Source: Candidatus Poribacteria bacterium (GTDB lineage: Bacteria > Poribacteria > WGA-4E > PCPOR2b). Taken from it: a DNA stretch of 64,000 nucleotides. The notes under the pieces are model-generated. The model was not told the DNA's origin and made no database searches. It saw only the letters and a list, made by a program, of their open reading frames with translations. Position numbers and translations under genes: made by a program. Location of the stretch: positions 1,984,001-2,048,000 of the forward strand of contig OZ242326.1 of NCBI GenBank assembly GCA_965208325.1, in the 5' to 3' direction. This document shows positions 47,297-54,187 of the stretch, in pieces. How positions within the stretch are numbered: position 1 is the first letter of the stretch; every line of letters begins with the position of its first letter.

Positions 47297-48065
47297 AGGG
47301 TTTCTCATAGATCTTGACGGGACGACATTTTTAGGCGATGACTTAATTCCAGGCGCCCTAATGTTCGTTGAAATCCTGCAAAAATTGGGGAAACCACATT
47401 TATTCTTGACGAACAACTCTTCTGAGTCGGCGCACACATATGTGGAAAAGCTGCGCCGCCTCGGAATTGATGCGCAGGATGGAAGCGTCTTAACCTCCGG
47501 CGATGCCACAGCCATGTATCTTGCGGACGCGGGATATACCAGGTTATTTGTTTTGGGGACGCCGAGTTTTGAAAATGAGCTAAAAGAATTTGGATTTATC
47601 CTCACATCTGAGCGTCCGGATTGCGTTGTTCTTGGATTCGATAAAACACTGAATTATCAAAAGCTCGAGATTGCAACGGATTTAATCCGTCGGAAAATTC
47701 CGTTTGTCGCAACCCATCCAGATAAGGTCTGCCCTACGGAAGACGGTTTTATTCCAGACTGCGGTGCGATTGCAGCGCTGCTTTCGGCTGCGACTGATGT
47801 CGATCCACTTGTCATCGGAAAACCCAAGCCGCAAATGGTTCAGATGGCGCTGAAGCGTTTGAATCTCGACTCGCGAAAGATCGCCATAATCGGCGACAGG
47901 CTGTACACGGATATACGAATGGGACGCGACGCCGGACTCGTAACGGTGCTTGTACTCTCCGGTGAGACTACGCCCGAAATGCTTCTGTCGGAAATTGAGA
48001 TGCGACCCCTTATCGTTGTAGAGCGCCTCGGGACACTATGCGGTTATTTATTGAATCTGTATTAG
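47241..48065 (+). CDS. HAD-IIA (NagD-like) phosphatase
   Basis: DLDGT, LTNNS, GKP, GDRLYTDI. Confidence 0.92.
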   Translation: MNHSHLPAVVIREILTQLEGFLIDLDGTTFLGDDLIPGALMFVEILQKLGKPHLFLTNNSSESAHTYVEKLRRLGIDAQDGSVLTSGDATAMYLADAGYTRLFVLGTPSFENELKEFGFILTSERPDCVVLGFDKTLNYQKLEIATDLIRRKIPFVATHPDKVCPTEDGFIPDCGAIAALLSAATDVDPLVIGKPKPQMVQMALKRLNLDSRKIAIIGDRLYTDIRMGRDAGLVTVLVLSGETTPEMLLSEIEMRPLIVVERLGTLCGYLLNLY

Positions 48066-49922
48066 TTCGGTTAAAGACACCGAGTTTTCAAATGAGGGTC
48101 GCGATTCGGAGATCGCTCTTGCGGCGCGCGGGTGGAATTGGAAGGATGGAAGATTGGATGGGATTCCGATTTTAGATGATGGGTTCGTATTGTTTAAAAA
48201 TTGGGTTAGGTTCAGCTCGGGATTAGGGACGGTGTTCGTAATTGGCAATCAATTCGGATGGGAGAGGTTTTAAAAGCGTTGGGTTTCGCTACAACCATCG
48301 GATTTTGTACACGGATAGATTGACGGGAGCGGTTGGTTTTACTGGGCGATTATTGGATGAACCCGCTCTACCCAACCTACAAAAACTTGTCCACAAACTA
48401 AGATTAGAAGAAACCGAGTTTTGAAGAAAAAACTCGGTTTCAAATAAAGTCCGCAATTTGGAGATCGCTCTTGCGGTGCGCGGGTGGAATTGGAAGGATG
48501 GAAGATTGGATGGGATTCCGATTTTAGAGGATGGGTTCGTATTGTTTAAAAATTGGGTTAGGTTCAGCGCGGGATTAGGGACGGTGTTCGTAATTGGCAA
48601 TCAATTCGGATGGGAGAGGTTTTAAAAGCGTTGGGTTTCGCTACAACCATCGGATTTTGTACACGGATAGATTGACGGGAGCGGTTGGTTTTACTGGGCG
48701 ATTATTGGATGAACCCGCTCTACCCAACCTACAAAAACTTGTCCACAAACTAAGATTAGAAGAAACCGAGTTTTGAAGAAAAAAACTCGGTTTAAAATAA
48801 ACGCCGCGATTCGGAGATCGCTCCTGCGGTGCGCGGGTGGAATCGGAAGGATGGAAGGTTGGAAGGGATTCCGATTTTCGAGGATGGGTTCGTATTGTTT
48901 AAAAATTGGGTTAGGTTCAGCGCGGGATTAGGGACGGTGTTCGTGATTGGCAATCAATTCGGATGGGAGAGGTTTTAAAAGCGTTGGGTTTCGCTACAAC
49001 CATCGGAATTTGTACACGGATAGATTGACGGGAGCGGTTGGTTTTACTGGGCGATTATTGGATGAACCCGCTCTACCCAACCTACAAAAACTTGTCCACA
49101 AACTAAGATTAGGAGAAACCGAGTTTTGAAGAAAAAACTCGGTTTCAAATAATAGCCGCGATTCGGAGATCGCTCTTGCGGTGCGCGGGTGGAATTGGAA
49201 GGATGGAAGATTGGAAGGGATTCCGATTTTCGATGACGGGTTCGTATTGTTTAAAAATTGGGTTAGGTTCAGCTCGGGATTAGGAACGGTGTTCGTGATT
49301 GGCAATCAATTCGGATGGGAGAGGTTTTAAAAGCGTTGGGTTTCGCTACAACCATCGAATCTTGTACACGGATAGATTGACGGGAGCGGTTGGTTTTAAT
49401 GGGCGATTATTGGATGAACCCGCTCTACCCAACCTACAAGAGCTTGTCCACGAACTAAGATTAGGAGAAACCGAGTTTTGAAGAAAAAACTCGGTTTCAA
49501 ATAAAGTCCGCAATTTGGAGATTGCTCCTGCGGTGCGCGGGTGGAATTGGAAGGATGGAAGAAAGGGAGCGCATGAACATTCGGTGTTGAAGGGTAGGTG
49601 GATTGCGTAAGTCTTACGCTTTAATGGCCAAGCATGATTGTTTAAAAATTGGGTTAGGTTCAGCTTGGGATTAGGGACGGTGTTCGTGATTCGCAATCAA
49701 TTCGGATGGGAGAGGTTTTAAAAGCGTTGGGTTTCGCTTCAACCATCGGCATTTGTACACGGATAGATTGACGGGAGCGGTTGGTTTTACTGGGCGATTA
49801 TTGGATGAACCCGCTCTACCCAACCTACAAAAACTTGTCCACAAACTAAGATTAGGAGAAACCGAGTTTTGAAGAAATAGTATCAAATGACCTGATGATA
49901 GTTGGAATGCGCGTGGTTACTG

Positions 49923-50068
49923 ACTTCGAGCCATCATCAAATGAGCGAGTTATGTTGGCTTAATTAGCTTATCCGTCAAGAAATTCATTTGGTTTGGCTA
50001 GAAGCGTGACAAAGTATACCAAAATGGCTATGGCGTGCCAAGCCGATGCCAAAGAAAGAGACGTTGTT
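49923..50068. ncRNA. Candidate structured non-coding RNA (two stem-loops with large internal loops)
   Basis: By-eye pairing 49923-49945 with 49984-50005 plus apical GGCT/AGCT; weaker second domain at 50008-50068; no expression evidence. Confidence 0.35.
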
Positions 50069-50101
50069 TTCCCATGTCTAAGCAATAATAGGCGTATGCT
50101 G

Positions 50102-50995
50102 TCATTGCAAGTCTCCTGTAGGTTTGGAACTGGACGGCACGGTGTTATCTTTGCCGTCTTCCAAGTTTGCGTTGATGTCATTCAGCGAATGTTGAGGAAT
50201 TAGGTCGAGATATTGAGAGATGACGCGCTTGGAAAGTTTGGTAATCTGAGAGATTTTGTCAATGTCATCGGTAGCGGTGCGAACAATCTTAACGGACTCA
50301 TAATCATGGATGTATCGGTCAACAGCTTCTTTGGAGTGCTTGGTTTTGGCAGCAATGGTCGGAGTCAGGTGCCCTTGTAGATAAAGGGTAATAATCTCCT
50401 TCTTGTGTGTAATTGCCGCCGATAAATCGTGAATGTTGCCGCGAGTGGGCAAGATTTTTCCACTGGTGCTTTGCCACTCGTTGACATACTCACTCACTAC
50501 TGGGTCGCGGACGTTGAGCAACACAGCCAGGTCTAGTTGAGTCAACAATGCCCCTTGGTCATAGGCTTGATAACACCATCGCACCAATCGATGAATTCTG
50601 AGTTCACGAGAGCTGAAGCCGCTGTAATAGTGTTCAATGTCCTCGGGGGCCACAAAGCTTAAAACCACAGGCTTCATGCGGGTTTTAACGATTGACTTGG
50701 CTCTCTGTGGATATTCGTCAATCGGCACAGCCATCCAAACCAGTTGACCATAGCTAAGCATTCGTTCATCAGGAAGTTGTTCTCCAGCGGCGAGTTTATC
50801 AAGTGGCAAGCGAATCAGGAAATAGTCTTCAATAGTTTTGACGATGTCATCGACAATGGCTTTGGCAGTCACTTCGCCTTTGTCATACCCATAGGAATTG
50901 ATAAAGCGATGAATCAGCAACTGCCGCAACGATTTATCATTGATACGTCTGATTTTCTTCTCGTTGATTTCGGTTCGAGTCAATGATTTACTCAT
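50102..50995 (-). CDS. DUF1670-like multi-HTH protein B
   Basis: QAYDQGALLTQLDLAVLL, PTRGNIHD, THK, TKHSKEAVDRY; ATGA overlap with the upstream gene. Confidence 0.85.
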   Translation of the reverse strand: MSKSLTRTEINEKKIRRINDKSLRQLLIHRFINSYGYDKGEVTAKAIVDDIVKTIEDYFLIRLPLDKLAAGEQLPDERMLSYGQLVWMAVPIDEYPQRAKSIVKTRMKPVVLSFVAPEDIEHYYSGFSSRELRIHRLVRWCYQAYDQGALLTQLDLAVLLNVRDPVVSEYVNEWQSTSGKILPTRGNIHDLSAAITHKKEIITLYLQGHLTPTIAAKTKHSKEAVDRYIHDYESVKIVRTATDDIDKISQITKLSKRVISQYLDLIPQHSLNDINANLEDGKDNTVPSSSKPTGDLQ

Positions 50996-51792
50996 GAGTT
51001 TTCCCCCTTTTTTTCATCAACGGGTTCAGGATGAAGTAAAGTCGTCATTCGCTCTGTATGTTCGTATTTATCATACAGGGAGAGATACTCACGAATCAAT
51101 CGGTCAGAGAGATGGGTGATGAGCCGTATCTGTTCCTTTGGAAAGTCTTGATGATGGAGGGTTGCTACCTGAGTGAAATTACGCAAGTATCTCAACACGG
51201 CGCGTTCGGTGTGGTTCGTCTTTCGCTCAATGTCGGTGAATTGATAGCCTTTAAAGTACAGTTCTAGGATTTGGGTTTTATGAGAGATGCCGGGGCCCAT
51301 GTCGTGTTTGGCGCCGCGAGTCATTACAAAAAACCCTTGCTGTTTCAACTGTCGAATGTCTCGTTTGACGGTCGCCGGGCTGGTGGTTAATAGCACCGCT
51401 AAATCTTCATAGCTGAGCAAAGCGTCTTGGTCATAGGCTTGTTTGGTTAACCGTAAGATTCGATGTCGTCTGAGTCCTGCAAGTCCATAGTTGGCTAACA
51501 CCTCAAGATCGGTGTGCACATCATTGAGGGTGAGTTGGCAGGAGACCTTTTTGGCTAAGGCAATGTGTTTACCTGCGGGTTCGTCGGCGGCTACGGCTTC
51601 ATAGCAGATTTGGCCTGATGTGAGTTTAATATCGGCGTGTTGGGCAAAGTAGGAAGAAATCTGATTATAGTAGGCTTCGGCAAGGATAGGCATCAGATTG
51701 AAGTCTGACGCAATCTTCTGAATAATTGCCGCTCTCGCCGTCTTTGATTCCAGACGATTGATACCGTAGTTTGAATGACTTTGTGGTTTCAT
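50992..51792 (-). CDS. DUF1670-like multi-HTH protein A
   Basis: QAYDQDALLSYEDLAVLL, TRGAKHDMGPGISHK, TNHTERAVLRY; GGAGG RBS before ATG at 51792. Confidence 0.85.
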   Translation of the reverse strand: MKPQSHSNYGINRLESKTARAAIIQKIASDFNLMPILAEAYYNQISSYFAQHADIKLTSGQICYEAVAADEPAGKHIALAKKVSCQLTLNDVHTDLEVLANYGLAGLRRHRILRLTKQAYDQDALLSYEDLAVLLTTSPATVKRDIRQLKQQGFFVMTRGAKHDMGPGISHKTQILELYFKGYQFTDIERKTNHTERAVLRYLRNFTQVATLHHQDFPKEQIRLITHLSDRLIREYLSLYDKYEHTERMTTLLHPEPVDEKKGENS

Positions 51793-52354
51793 AATGACCT
51801 CCATGGATTCATGGTAATTGATGGAAATAACATCTGTTATCAGTTTAACTCATGGGGTCATTTGATACAAACTATAAAAAACTCGGTTTCAAATAAAAGT
51901 CGCGATTCGGAGATCGCTCTTGCGGTGCGCGGGTGGAATTGGAAGGATGGAAGATTGGAAGGGATTCCGATTTTCGATGACGGGTTCGTATTGTTTAAAA
52001 ATTGGGTTAGGTTCAGCTTGGGATTAGGGACGGTGTTCGTGATTCGCAATCAATTCGGATGGGAGAGGTTTTAAAAGCGTTGGGTTTCGCTCCATTCATC
52101 GGATCTTGTACGCGGTTAGGTTGACGGGGAATTTGGTTTTCATGGACGGTTTTTGGATGTATCCGCTCTACCCAACCTACAGGAGTTGTGTTTAAGAAAC
52201 CGAGTTTGCAAGAAAAAAACTCGGTTTCAATTAACATTTTGCTCGGCTTCAGAGTTTCGGCAGGTGCAGTTGGGAGACTAAACCTACCGCAGTGCAAATA
52301 AATTACGAGCTTTGCAATGATTTGGCGGAAGTCCTTGTTCGGAAGGAACTATTC

Positions 52355-54187
52355 ATGGAATACATAGTGTGTTTTATTGGAATTTGTGTGGTTGGCGGTC
52401 TCGGTTTGGCTGCCGTATGCGCAGCCGAACAGGGCTACCGGGAGACGCAGCTTCACGAGAAAGTCGTAGAACGCATTTACCAAGACGGCCGCCGGGTTTT
52501 GATGGTGAACGGGGATGAAATCGAAGATAGAACACCGAAACCCGACCCGGCTCCACAGGACATCACGCCCGAGGAACACGAACGCGGATACATCGTCTAT
52601 CGACGATCTGATTCTGACGGCGTCTTTCGTTTCAGCAGCCCCCAAACCGGTGAGCGAACTGCCGTTCTCTCGACGGCTGCGAGTCAGGACGAGAAACGGC
52701 ACGCGCAGTTTGCTATACGCGCGCTCCGAGATTTGGGGAGGGTAGATGTGGAACTTGGGGCATTGTCGAACGGGGATGGCGTCACGCTGCCGGTTTCCGC
52801 TGTTTCAGTTCGACCGGTGCGTATCGGCATTTGGAGAAACTATTGGGACCCGTTCTTTGTCGAGGCGCCGAAACTCTTAGATCATTATGACGCTGTGACC
52901 CGCGTGCACCGCGGGCAGAGCCAGCAGTTTTGGATTAGTTTTCACGTACCGCCGGGGACACCTGCCGGCAGATTTTCGGGGGACATTCATGTGCGTACCG
53001 AGCATGGCGGTGAAGCGGCGCTAAGGCTTGAATTGGAGGTTTATCCTTTTTCCCTGGCGCCCGGGCGATGGTGGGGCATCTACTACTACGGTCTGACAGG
53101 CGAGAAAACTGCACGGGACTTCGCTGACATGAAGGCACACGGCGTCAATTCGTTGCTCATCTGTCCTCCGGGGCACGTAGCGCCCGTGCTTGAGCGCGTC
53201 GGGGACCGCGTTACCGCTAGTTTTCCGCACACTGACAAGCTGATGGCTGAACTTAAACGTCAGGGGTTTAACAGGCAGGTGCCGTATTATCCCCGCATGT
53301 TAAGCTGCCGCGTGCTCGATCTCTTCGACCGTGTGGACGGTGTGAAATTCAAGCCCGGCGACTATTACGGCCAACGCTGCGTCGACTATAAAGCTGAAGA
53401 CTATCCCGAAGACCTGAAGGAGGTACTCAAAGATATTTTTCGCCAAATGGTTCAACACGCAAAGGAAGCAGATTGGCCGGAAATCCTCTGGTTCCTCGTG
53501 GATGAACCCGGTGCCGCAGCTTTGCACGAGCGTGAACTTGAATGGGCGAAGGTAGAATTCCCCCTGTTTGCGGAGGCATGCCCCGGCGAGAAATTGCTCT
53601 GTACGGCGTACTCACGCGACGTGATTGACGCTATCGGTGTCCGGCTTGATGTGCGTGTCGGGGAGTTGTGGCGCTTTACCGACGACGACCTGCAGCGTAC
53701 CGACGCGGACGATTCACAGCTCTGGGGTATTCGTTGGCTGTGTCAGCACAATGCCTACCGTTTTCCGCGGCACTTCGCCGGGTTTGGGCTCGACCGTATG
53801 GGGCTTGACGGTTTTACCGAATGGACGTACTACGGCGCACCCGTCTACCGACCCTACGACCAGATTATTGACTGGCAGGGTTGCAGTTACGCCTTTGAAG
53901 ATGAACATGGGAATCTCCTCAGCACGATTACCTGGGAAGCGGCGCAGGAAGGCATTGACGATGCCCGCTACGCGGCTACGCTGCGCGCACTAATTTCCAA
54001 TGGTGAGTCCTTGATGAACCGAGAGCATCAGCGGCTTGGCGGCGATGCGTCGGATTGGATTGAAACGCGCATCGCGGCAATTCCAAATCGCCCGGTTACC
54101 TTGCCCGAGGCGGAACTGGACGCATTGCGGCGGGAGATTGCGAATCAGATTATTGTGTTGATGGACGCGGGACTGTCCGCCGATTAG
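52355..54187 (+). CDS. Secreted glycoside-hydrolase-like protein (GH123/DUF4091-like)
   Basis: QQFWISFHVP, DMKAHGVNS, DEP, WEAAQEGIDDARY. Confidence 0.7.
   Translation: MEYIVCFIGICVVGGLGLAAVCAAEQGYRETQLHEKVVERIYQDGRRVLMVNGDEIEDRTPKPDPAPQDITPEEHERGYIVYRRSDSDGVFRFSSPQTGERTAVLSTAASQDEKRHAQFAIRALRDLGRVDVELGALSNGDGVTLPVSAVSVRPVRIGIWRNYWDPFFVEAPKLLDHYDAVTRVHRGQSQQFWISFHVPPGTPAGRFSGDIHVRTEHGGEAALRLELEVYPFSLAPGRWWGIYYYGLTGEKTARDFADMKAHGVNSLLICPPGHVAPVLERVGDRVTASFPHTDKLMAELKRQGFNRQVPYYPRMLSCRVLDLFDRVDGVKFKPGDYYGQRCVDYKAEDYPEDLKEVLKDIFRQMVQHAKEADWPEILWFLVDEPGAAALHERELEWAKVEFPLFAEACPGEKLLCTAYSRDVIDAIGVRLDVRVGELWRFTDDDLQRTDADDSQLWGIRWLCQHNAYRFPRHFAGFGLDRMGLDGFTEWTYYGAPVYRPYDQIIDWQGCSYAFEDEHGNLLSTITWEAAQEGIDDARYAATLRALISNGESLMNREHQRLGGDASDWIETRIAAIPNRPVTLPEAELDALRREIANQIIVLMDAGLSAD

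Follow-up and report, generated by a model that had tools for sequence, protein, structure and literature searches.

The DNA analysed (the window) was a 64-kb stretch of contig OZ242326.1 of a Candidatus Poribacteria bacterium, and it carried at 49875–51875 an element of 2001 bp with two genes on the minus strand, whose products, OrfA and OrfB, both belong to the protein family DUF1670 (PF07900). This element is a real, active insertion sequence (IS). Positions are those of the window unless marked G000:C1, which refers to the host genome G000, a single contig of 4.7 Mb with a completeness of 95.6%. In gene orientation the element runs from its left end (LE) at 51875 to its right end (RE) at 49875.

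The element lay in a tandem array at 48086–49562, for which Tandem Repeats Finder (TRF) gave a period of 352 bp, 4.2 copies and 95% matches. Every 352-bp unit terminated in a 30-bp palindrome, AAACCGAGTTTTGAAGAAAAAACTCGGTTT, a repetitive extragenic palindromic (REP) hairpin. In the fifth unit the hairpin was split at ...CCGAGTTTTGAAGAAA and continued with AAAAAACTCGGTTTC at 51876, and it was intact in the array units upstream of the insertion. An earlier preliminary description of this locus had noted a unit interrupted mid-palindrome between intact neighbours, and both the sequence and TRF bore this out. The features of the locus were as follows:

49858–49874: left half of the REP hairpin (target DNA), GAAACCGAGTTTTGAAG; orthologous hairpins intact in sister genome G003
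49875–51875: whole element, 2001 bp; four identical copies, filled minus empty equal to 2001 bp at two orthologous sites
49875–49879: RE tip TATTT (gene orientation), the 5 nt beyond the inverted repeat, resembling the 5' flank of the target
49880–49892: RE subterminal inverted repeat, GTATCAAATGACC on the plus strand, perfect over 13 bp
49893–49939: hairpin adjoining the RE repeat, arms at 49893–49907 and 49925–49939
49958–50005: first hairpin of the 3' non-coding tail, with the tip AAUUUCUUGA
50013–50041, minus strand: sigma-70-like promoter directed outward towards RE, TTGGCA-17-TATACT with TG
50102–50995, minus strand: OrfB, 297 aa, DUF1670; AlphaFold2 predicted local distance difference test (pLDDT) 76.6; ratio of nonsynonymous to synonymous substitution rates (dN/dS) 0.08–0.12
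50992–51804, minus strand: OrfA, 270 aa, DUF1670; AlphaFold2 pLDDT 89.1; dN/dS 0.05–0.11
51805–51855: leader with the ribosome-binding site GGAGG, from an alignment of 30 variants
51856–51868: LE subterminal inverted repeat, GGTCATTTGATAC on the plus strand, perfect over 13 bp
51869–51875: LE tip ATAGTTT (gene orientation), the 7 nt beyond the repeat, from an alignment of variants
51876–51892: right half of the REP hairpin, AAAAAACTCGGTTTC..., from the sequence

The perfect 13-bp inverted repeat reported earlier was confirmed at 49880–49892 and 51856–51868; the description had not noted that these repeats are subterminal, with 7 nt of the element lying outside the LE repeat and 5 nt outside the RE repeat. 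The insertion also stood, with its span corrected from 49878–51875 (1998 bp) to 49875–51875 (2001 bp), because the AAA at 49875–49877 is part of the element and a target duplication is absent. The GC content was 42–50% in the element, 57–59% downstream and 45–51% in the upstream genes, so that the earlier impression of an element AT-richer than the host genes holds only in part.

The LE tip ATAGTTT was identical in 29 of 30 aligned variants (AAGGTTT in L038), and the sequence adjoining the LE repeat was nearly invariant among them. Both repeat arms co-varied in the Poribacteria variants (GTATCATATGCCC/GGGCATATGATAC and GTCTCATATGACC/GGTCATATGAGAC), and the core TCAWATGA was retained in distant lineages. 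This core, TCA-N2-TGA, is a palindrome in its own right, which matches the expectation for a dimer-binding site. A third copy of the repeat core, ATCAAATGA, was found at 49936–49944, 44 nt inward of the RE repeat, in the closest variants only. By eye, CCATG adjoining the LE repeat could pair with CATGG at the ribosome-binding site.

Copies, empty sites and targets

The 1998-bp stretch was present four times at 100% identity in the host genome. All four copies lay in the same REP palindrome and faced the same way with respect to its asymmetric loop, which is far above chance. In G003 the loci orthologous to two of these copies carried an intact palindrome, and filled and empty sites differed by exactly 2001 bp; further copies and empty sites, the expected marks of mobility, were thus both present. 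Apart from remnants, no other element of the host genome was found to share these ends, a result that bears on the possibility, raised in the preliminary description, of a separate transposase moving them.

A survey of 121 Poribacteria genomes and 14 control genomes with PF07900 (model of 220 positions, curated cut-off 25 bits) gave 1–22 matches each in 36 of the Poribacteria genomes; one of three other genomes of the same genus was matched, and among the controls only Methanosarcina acetivorans. Many database homologues were on contigs of about 2 kb, as is usual for repeats in short-read assemblies. Full copies from other Poribacteria were collected at 30 loci and 20 further ones, which together with the host's own copies represented 39 distinct insertion sites.

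The right-hand triplet after ...GATACTA (gene orientation) was TTT at all 39 sites, and the left triplet before ATAGTTT... was TTT at 23 and CTT at 16 of them. Otherwise identical copies in one genome (L025, L026, L027 and L031) carried both left triplets. The constancy of TTT on the right assigns that triplet to the element, and the variation on the left marks the other triplet as target DNA; hence there is no duplication. A 3-bp TTT target duplication was accordingly rejected, the flanking triplets differing at 16/39 sites. Mobility, exact ends, duplication-free insertion, and target and orientation specificity are established by these observations together with the target sites described below.

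Contigs covering the locus were compared in four runs, all as assembled contigs, and the stretch was absent from the RNA runs. One joint in run X2 that skipped 2001 positions was rejected: it had 27 letters on its shorter side and lay inside the repeated hairpin, so that it probably represents an empty REP elsewhere and not excision at the window locus. At L025:3912–3929, an RE-like sequence of 17–18 nt (GGTTATTTGATACTATTT) abutted the LE of a full copy; from its sequence, this arrangement is what would be expected of joined ends, or of an insertion beside an end-like target.

The 39 sites comprised 29 gene 3' ends encoding a type IX secretion system (T9SS) tail, 8 REP loops, and 2 sites that were neither. 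A pattern caught 19 of the 29 gene ends, and visual inspection of its output added the other 10 (...MLIRK, ...MLTLK, ...MLIQK). The REP loops counted as 8 sites stood for the four own copies, 10/10 full copies of one metagenome-assembled genome and one G003 copy. Insertion fell just after TT, at the motif YTAYTT^C and, for the REP loop, at TTTTT^C. The products of the 29 target genes ended ...SG(I/V)YFY...TRKM(V/L)ILK, and two of them matched TIGR04183, the type A sorting domain of the T9SS, right up to the C-terminal residues (30.3 and 32.7 bits, cut-off 23).

At the T9SS targets the element sat between the penultimate codon and the final Lys codon, and its RE tip read AAA-TAG on the target gene strand, that is, the last codon and part of the stop. 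As the tip supplies AAA-TAG, the target protein is unchanged and the insertion harmless. In a distant DUF1670 lineage (35–45% identity), gathered by a metagenome scan with protein P0282, the targets resembled T9SS-tail ends as well (...KKAVILK, ...KKLIIMR), and the element tip was TATCG at Arg-stop targets versus TATTT at Lys-stop targets. That the RE tip changes in step with the sequence 5' of the target is the hallmark of a recombination core common to both.

The host genome contained at least 35 T9SS-tail gene ends of the target type. Decayed RE remnants were found at three T9SS-tail stop codons (G000:C1:2325643, 2657334 and 4057022), and a decayed mini-element of about 390 bp with both ends was found at a fourth T9SS-tail gene end (G000:C1:2139018–2139403). 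The genes with remnants ended ...ARKMLILK, ...LRRMVIVK, ...TRKMLILK and ...TRKMLIAK, and the remnants now supply their stop codons. Judged by their sequences, the remnants derive from an older variant of the element. The decayed remnants at T9SS ends, beside identical current copies in REP loops, indicate that the lineage formerly used T9SS ends. Contigs of similar samples joined the ends of the window element to T9SS-type flanks (loose contig ends).

About 103 copies of the REP hairpin were present in the host genome. The host encoded two homologues of Y1 HUH transposases (PF01797), L098 (G000:C1:3321944–3322279, 39.4 bits) and L097 (1955941–1956273, 46.7 bits). L098 had three of the target hairpins on one side and one on the other, the arrangement of a REP-associated tyrosine transposase (RAYT) locus; with four such hairpins flanking a Y1 HUH gene, the palindrome is a true REP. 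From its sequence and position, L098 looks like the REP-associated transposase of the target hairpin family. The hairpin also punctuated further arrays (G000:C1 ~1894813–1895416, 4209639–4210893 and 1979152–1980153), at spacings of ~194 bp and ~489 bp. In the 352-bp array (window 48086–49874 and 51876–52230) the unit was strongly skewed for G over C (+0.3); about 95 nt of unit 5, at 49545–49640, were replaced by unrelated sequence (GGAAGAAAGGGAGCGCATGAAC...), and the TRF array ended there.

The DUF1670 proteins and the non-coding tail

The open reading frames (ORFs) of OrfA and OrfB overlapped by ATGA and were the only long ORFs of the element. OrfA matched PF07900 with 215.5 bits (E 7.6e-64, positions 4–220) and OrfB with 201.9 bits (E 1.1e-59, positions 30–220). 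The two proteins shared 34% identity (BLASTP), with homology over nearly the full length (hhalign E 3e-59). Two translationally coupled DUF1670 paralogues as the sole genes, as first described, were therefore supported by Pfam, BLASTP, hhalign and the ORF list. The dN/dS was 0.05–0.12 in ten comparisons at a synonymous rate (dS) of 0.3–1.9, an eleventh and a twelfth being saturated; both genes are under strong purifying selection.

The AlphaFold models of OrfA and OrfB had a common layout: helices at the N-terminus, then a beta hairpin, a long helix and a winged helix, and beyond these two more helix-turn-helix (HTH) units. The best-conserved residues common to both were R118, Q126, D134, G164, D168, G170, H175, K176, H198, Y206 and Y240. 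In the OrfA model the motif RG-x2-HD-x-G-x3-(T/S)HK was located within the loop that leads from the winged helix to the HTH unit behind it. The conserved residues of this loop motif and the tyrosines Y206 and Y240 (OrfA) are candidates for an active site and no more than that. For the winged helix (OrfB 126–192, OrfA 105–165) the top or near-top neighbour, with Z 6.2 and 5.6, was the 5Y-CAP domain of topoisomerase VI-A, which carries a tyrosine, and Spo11 was a neighbour at Z 5.1; the 5Y-CAP and Spo11 scores were tied with those of many regulators, and the similarity is a lead only.

The family extended well beyond the host. The OrfB search gave 961 clusters (50% identity level, E ≤ 0.001) and the OrfA search 946 at the 90% level, and a Gemmatimonadota-named protein was 65% identical to OrfA. 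In the distant lineage an A-like ORF was followed by an adjacent B-like DUF1670 ORF at 19 of 22 loci; two of the remaining three were cut by contig ends and one had a single ORF. Locus L075 held a single DUF1670 ORF although its flank was sufficient. At 10 of 16 distant loci examined, inverted repeats built on this core flanked the pair on both sides (GTATCATATGACC...GGTCATTTGATAC, GTATCAAATGATAC and AGTTCATATGACC, and TCGTATGAGCC in a GC-rich branch). At the other six (L075, L076, L077, L082, L090 and L094) only short GC-rich matches were found, which were not accepted as ends. The preliminary description had made its case depend on conserved ends and filled/empty polymorphism at other DUF1670 pairs, and the repeats at these 10/16 loci and the polymorphism described above agree with it. 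Comparison of these sequences shows the gene pair as the sole, selected cargo, and the pair and the repeat core as co-inherited across distant lineages.

Proteins in which A and B were fused (529–559 aa) and DUF1670 proteins of three modules (930–952 aa; P0133, P0134, P0138 and P0147) also existed. The contigs of P0133 and P0134 were 3.0–3.5 kb long, a size that suggests one-gene versions of the element; a metagenome scan with P0133 found no locus. The fused two- and three-module forms would fit paralogues that act together. Two compact relatives, L088 and L089, had 32–40 nt after OrfB and 54–67 nt before OrfA, and they were targeted to T9SS-type ends alike. As these relatives reach similar targets with minimal non-coding DNA, nothing more than the proteins and the ends seems to be needed.

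The 225-nt tail behind OrfB held the best sigma-70-like site of the region (TTGGCA-17-TG-TATACT, 10/12, 50041–50013 on the minus strand). TAYACT was present within the 200-nt tail of 28 of 29 related copies, in the same column of the tail alignment, and was kept although the dS of the variants was near or above 1. Single-sequence folds of 16 variants gave two hairpins downstream of the promoter, and the stem of the RE-adjoining hairpin was preserved in variants with altered sequence. RNAalifold analysis of 18 tails gave a weak consensus (-1.8 kcal/mol) containing the RE hairpin in part, with changes on both sides of one pair in five sequences. Whole-tail RNA folds were not better than shuffles (z 0.23 and -1.24). 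A search of 47900–52400 against Rfam gave no match, one sub-threshold snoRNA match being dismissed, and no guide-like complementarity of 9 nt or more was found between the element and the REP target, the 7–8-nt matches lying in coding DNA. The tip of the first tail hairpin (UUUCUU, AAUUUCUUGA) resembled the insertion point TTT^CTT, a resemblance only. The tail promoter might serve to produce a small RNA, to transcribe the flanking DNA, or to express OrfA and OrfB once the ends are joined; a promoter active only at joined ends is described for IS110/IS1111 junctions (PMC11187229). It is not universal in the family, given the short tails of L088 and L089.

Proposed mechanism and alternative explanations

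The scarless, oriented insertion at a motif that the target has in common with the element tip rules out the staggered-cut chemistry of DDE transposases and indicates conservative recombination. With somewhat better than even confidence, the element is taken to be an autonomous member of an undescribed IS family in which the two DUF1670 proteins form a heteromer that binds the repeats, brings the two ends together and carries out the exchange. From the sequences we infer the repeat binding, the catalysis, the joined-end intermediate and the chemistry. OrfA and OrfB, probably as a heteromer, would bind the palindromic TCA-N2-TGA core of both 13-bp subterminal repeats and bring the ends together, ...GATAC-TATTT next to ATAGTTT-GTATC..., with a predicted junction of ...GATACTATTT joined to ATAGTTTGTATC.... 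The pair would then perform, or at least direct, a conservative recombination that inserts these joined ends into the target in one orientation; the target has the short T-rich motif of the element tip, and breakage and joining would fall just after TT. Nothing would be duplicated or lost, and the RE tip left at the site would reproduce the target's own 5' flank. Across most Poribacteria, insertion would take place at the junction of the penultimate and last codons of T9SS-tail genes, with Lys-stop restored, and the active variant of the host genome would use the loop of the abundant REP hairpin instead.

The terms "DUF1670" and "PF07900" occurred in none of about 8.4 million full texts, with ISfinder outside this comparison, and among the IS papers listed none named Por_Secre_tail; the IS family is apparently undescribed.

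Several results weigh against catalysis by the DUF1670 pair. A Pfam scan of 88 aligned members showed, beside DUF1670, only HTH-type families. HTH_23 and HTH_29, which Pfam describes as homeodomain-like and winged HTH and which are presumably transposase-associated, were each matched by 25/88 members. NCBIfam, which includes NCBI's IS transposase models, gave no match above cut-off, the IS1 model reaching 15.5 bits against a cut-off of 100 on the HTH stretch. Searches of PHROGs and PADLOC gave nothing relevant, and a profile search of Protein Data Bank (PDB) sequences gave HTH regulators and a designed repeat only. Foldseek of the OrfA model against the PDB gave no match at E ≤ 0.001, and VIA-align of both models gave only winged HTH and HTH neighbours at the noise level (Z ≤ 6.9). 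In the assembled contigs, neither a circle junction nor an excision product nor a transcript was seen. A recognisable catalytic domain was thus absent, and cutting and joining are putative functions of DUF1670.

Known catalytic types were not recognised either. No Pfam match to tyrosine or serine recombinase domains was found in the 88 members, nor was such a fold among the listed neighbours, whose weak matches carry little weight on this point (the N-terminal ~100 residues were not searched alone). No DDE or RNase H-like transposase model of Pfam, for the element proteins and the 88 relatives, or of NCBIfam exceeded its threshold, PF01548 and PF02371 (IS110/IS1111) did not match OrfA, OrfB or these relatives, and PF01797 (HUH Y1) did not match the element proteins, the two PF01797 genes of the genome being located elsewhere. 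The best ESM Atlas score (0.80) was uninformative, and tblastn against a plasmid collection gave no match.

The preliminary description had reported no DDE, DEDD, HUH or serine recombinase motif, which holds at the Pfam level for the 88 members, and the absence of a match to a known transposase family in Pfam extended to NCBIfam, PHROGs, PADLOC, and PDB sequences and folds. It had further proposed the DUF1670 pair as the mobilisation enzyme of an undescribed IS-like family, possibly acting as a heteromer. The mobile, IS-like nature, the pair as sole genes and the lack of a match to any known family stood up; the catalytic role is what we infer. That insertion is site-specific and scarless, and that the family usually targets the stop-codon region of T9SS-tail genes, had not been noted there. 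For the heteromer, the fused two- and three-module forms are in keeping with it, and the predictions of an OrfA–OrfB complex from own alignments (A2 and A3) scored 0.15 and 0.02 against a mark of 0.32, a result that weighs on neither side.

Since only DNA-binding folds (a winged HTH and two HTH units) can be recognised in the two proteins, the pair might only recognise the ends and the target, in the manner of TnsD, and a host Xer-type recombinase, topoisomerase or junction resolvase might cut and join. Scarless, core-sharing insertion is typical of conservative site-specific recombinases, and elements that borrow Xer recombinases are known. However, the family spans Poribacteria, Gemmatimonadota and Methanosarcina, so that the recruited enzyme would have to be nearly universal. 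The most conserved motif, RG-x2-HD-x-G-x3-(T/S)HK, is common to A and B and would not be needed in a plain HTH protein, and the joined ends (13-bp arms, 12-nt spacer) are unlike a dif/lox-type site as such sites are generally known. Recruitment of a host enzyme is therefore considered unlikely, though a serious alternative. That a guide RNA from the tail promoter and hairpins, similar to a seekRNA or bridge RNA, chooses the target in place of the proteins is improbable. The anatomy matches that of IS1111 as given in PMC11187229, the 225-nt tail has a conserved promoter and hairpins, and the tip UUUCUU of the first hairpin matches the insertion point TTT^CTT; yet L088 and L089, with tails of 32–40 nt, are still found at T9SS-type ends, and the hairpin tip is identical in variants at REP and T9SS sites. 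The lack of an element–target match of 9 nt or more, the empty Rfam search, the weak RNAalifold consensus and the whole-tail folds also speak against a guide.

Two further explanations have lower probability. The element might be non-autonomous and be moved in trans by an IS1111-type DEDD or a REP-associated HUH transposase, with the DUF1670 proteins as passengers, and the two Y1 HUH homologues of the host, one of them flanked by four target hairpins, would suit this. Nevertheless, no other element with these repeats was found in the host genome, and PF01548 and PF02371 were not found there, whereas they matched in 6 of 14 control genomes. Most relatives are at T9SS gene ends with no REP nearby, and passengers would not retain a dN/dS of 0.05–0.12, their pairing and the repeat core across lineages that are 35–45% identical; mobilisation in trans is thus very improbable. 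That the assembly is wrong, or that two ordinary regulator genes merely happen to lie within an inverted repeat, has next to no probability: four identical copies at separate loci of a one-contig genome, and the same ends in many independent assemblies and runs, rule out the misassembly that the preliminary description had allowed for.

To our knowledge, all characterised transposases belong to a handful of catalytic classes. If the DUF1670 pair itself performs the exchange, DUF1670 may form a new class of recombinase or transposase outside the DDE, DEDD, HUH, serine and tyrosine classes, built of tandem HTH modules in two- or three-module assemblies, which would insert about 2 kb at a defined sequence in one orientation without duplication, guide RNA or loss of target function. 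This wider proposal is tentative and is held at somewhat less than even confidence. An active IS family with HTH-type proteins only, spread from bacterial phyla to archaea, would imply either a new mode of cutting and joining DNA or a general borrowing of host enzymes, and in a two-gene, 2-kb system this question is directly testable. Insertion that is precise, oriented and scarless, is confined to a short defined site and seems to need no guide RNA would be of practical appeal, and natural variants have switched their target from the last codon of a gene to a REP loop. For annotation, about 960 DUF1670 clusters, at present named "hypothetical" or "biotin operon repressor", would have to be reassigned to mobile elements. 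In sponge symbionts the element marks recent genome flux, and it hits typical surface-protein genes without destroying them.

Comparison with known systems

Like the two-ORF or HTH-rich DDE insertion sequences (IS3, IS1, IS630 and IS30), the DUF1670 element is about 2 kb long and has inverted repeats and overlapping ORFs; unlike them, it has no DDE or RNase H-like domain (Pfam) and no target duplication. Tn7 at attTn7 also uses a gene 3' end that is read by a DNA-binding protein, TnsD, and leaves the gene product unharmed. However, Tn7 encodes five proteins, a DDE transposase among them, duplicates 5 bp of its target and lands downstream of the gene, whereas the DUF1670 element inserts inside the last codons and rebuilds them.

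With the IS200/IS605 elements, the DUF1670 element has in common the absence of duplication, insertion directly 3' of a short specific sequence that borders the left end, a related short sequence at the right tip and a preference for hairpins. In contrast to this HUH Y1 group, it has no HUH/Y1 domain, and its ends share an inverted repeat, as would be expected for double-strand binding. The four copies had no common orientation relative to GC skew (a 2+2 split with respect to replication), which is a weak test, as the cumulative GC skew gave no clean two-arm curve.

The closest comparison was with IS1111. IS1111 elements have subterminal repeats of 11–13 bp, tips of 7 bp and 3 bp and a downstream non-coding region, and they insert without duplication into REP or attC targets (PMC11187229); REP targets are described for IS1111-group elements such as ISPa11 (PMC1525189). 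The DUF1670 element likewise has perfect subterminal repeats (13 bp) and asymmetric tips (7 and 5 nt, compared with 7 left and 3 right in IS1111). It also inserts without duplication, in one orientation and at one specific sequence, with REP hairpins among its targets, and the window element has a sizeable non-coding region downstream of its genes. IS1111 differs in having one DEDD (RuvC-like) transposase and a seekRNA, where the present element has two DUF1670 HTH proteins and compact relatives with no room for a guide RNA.

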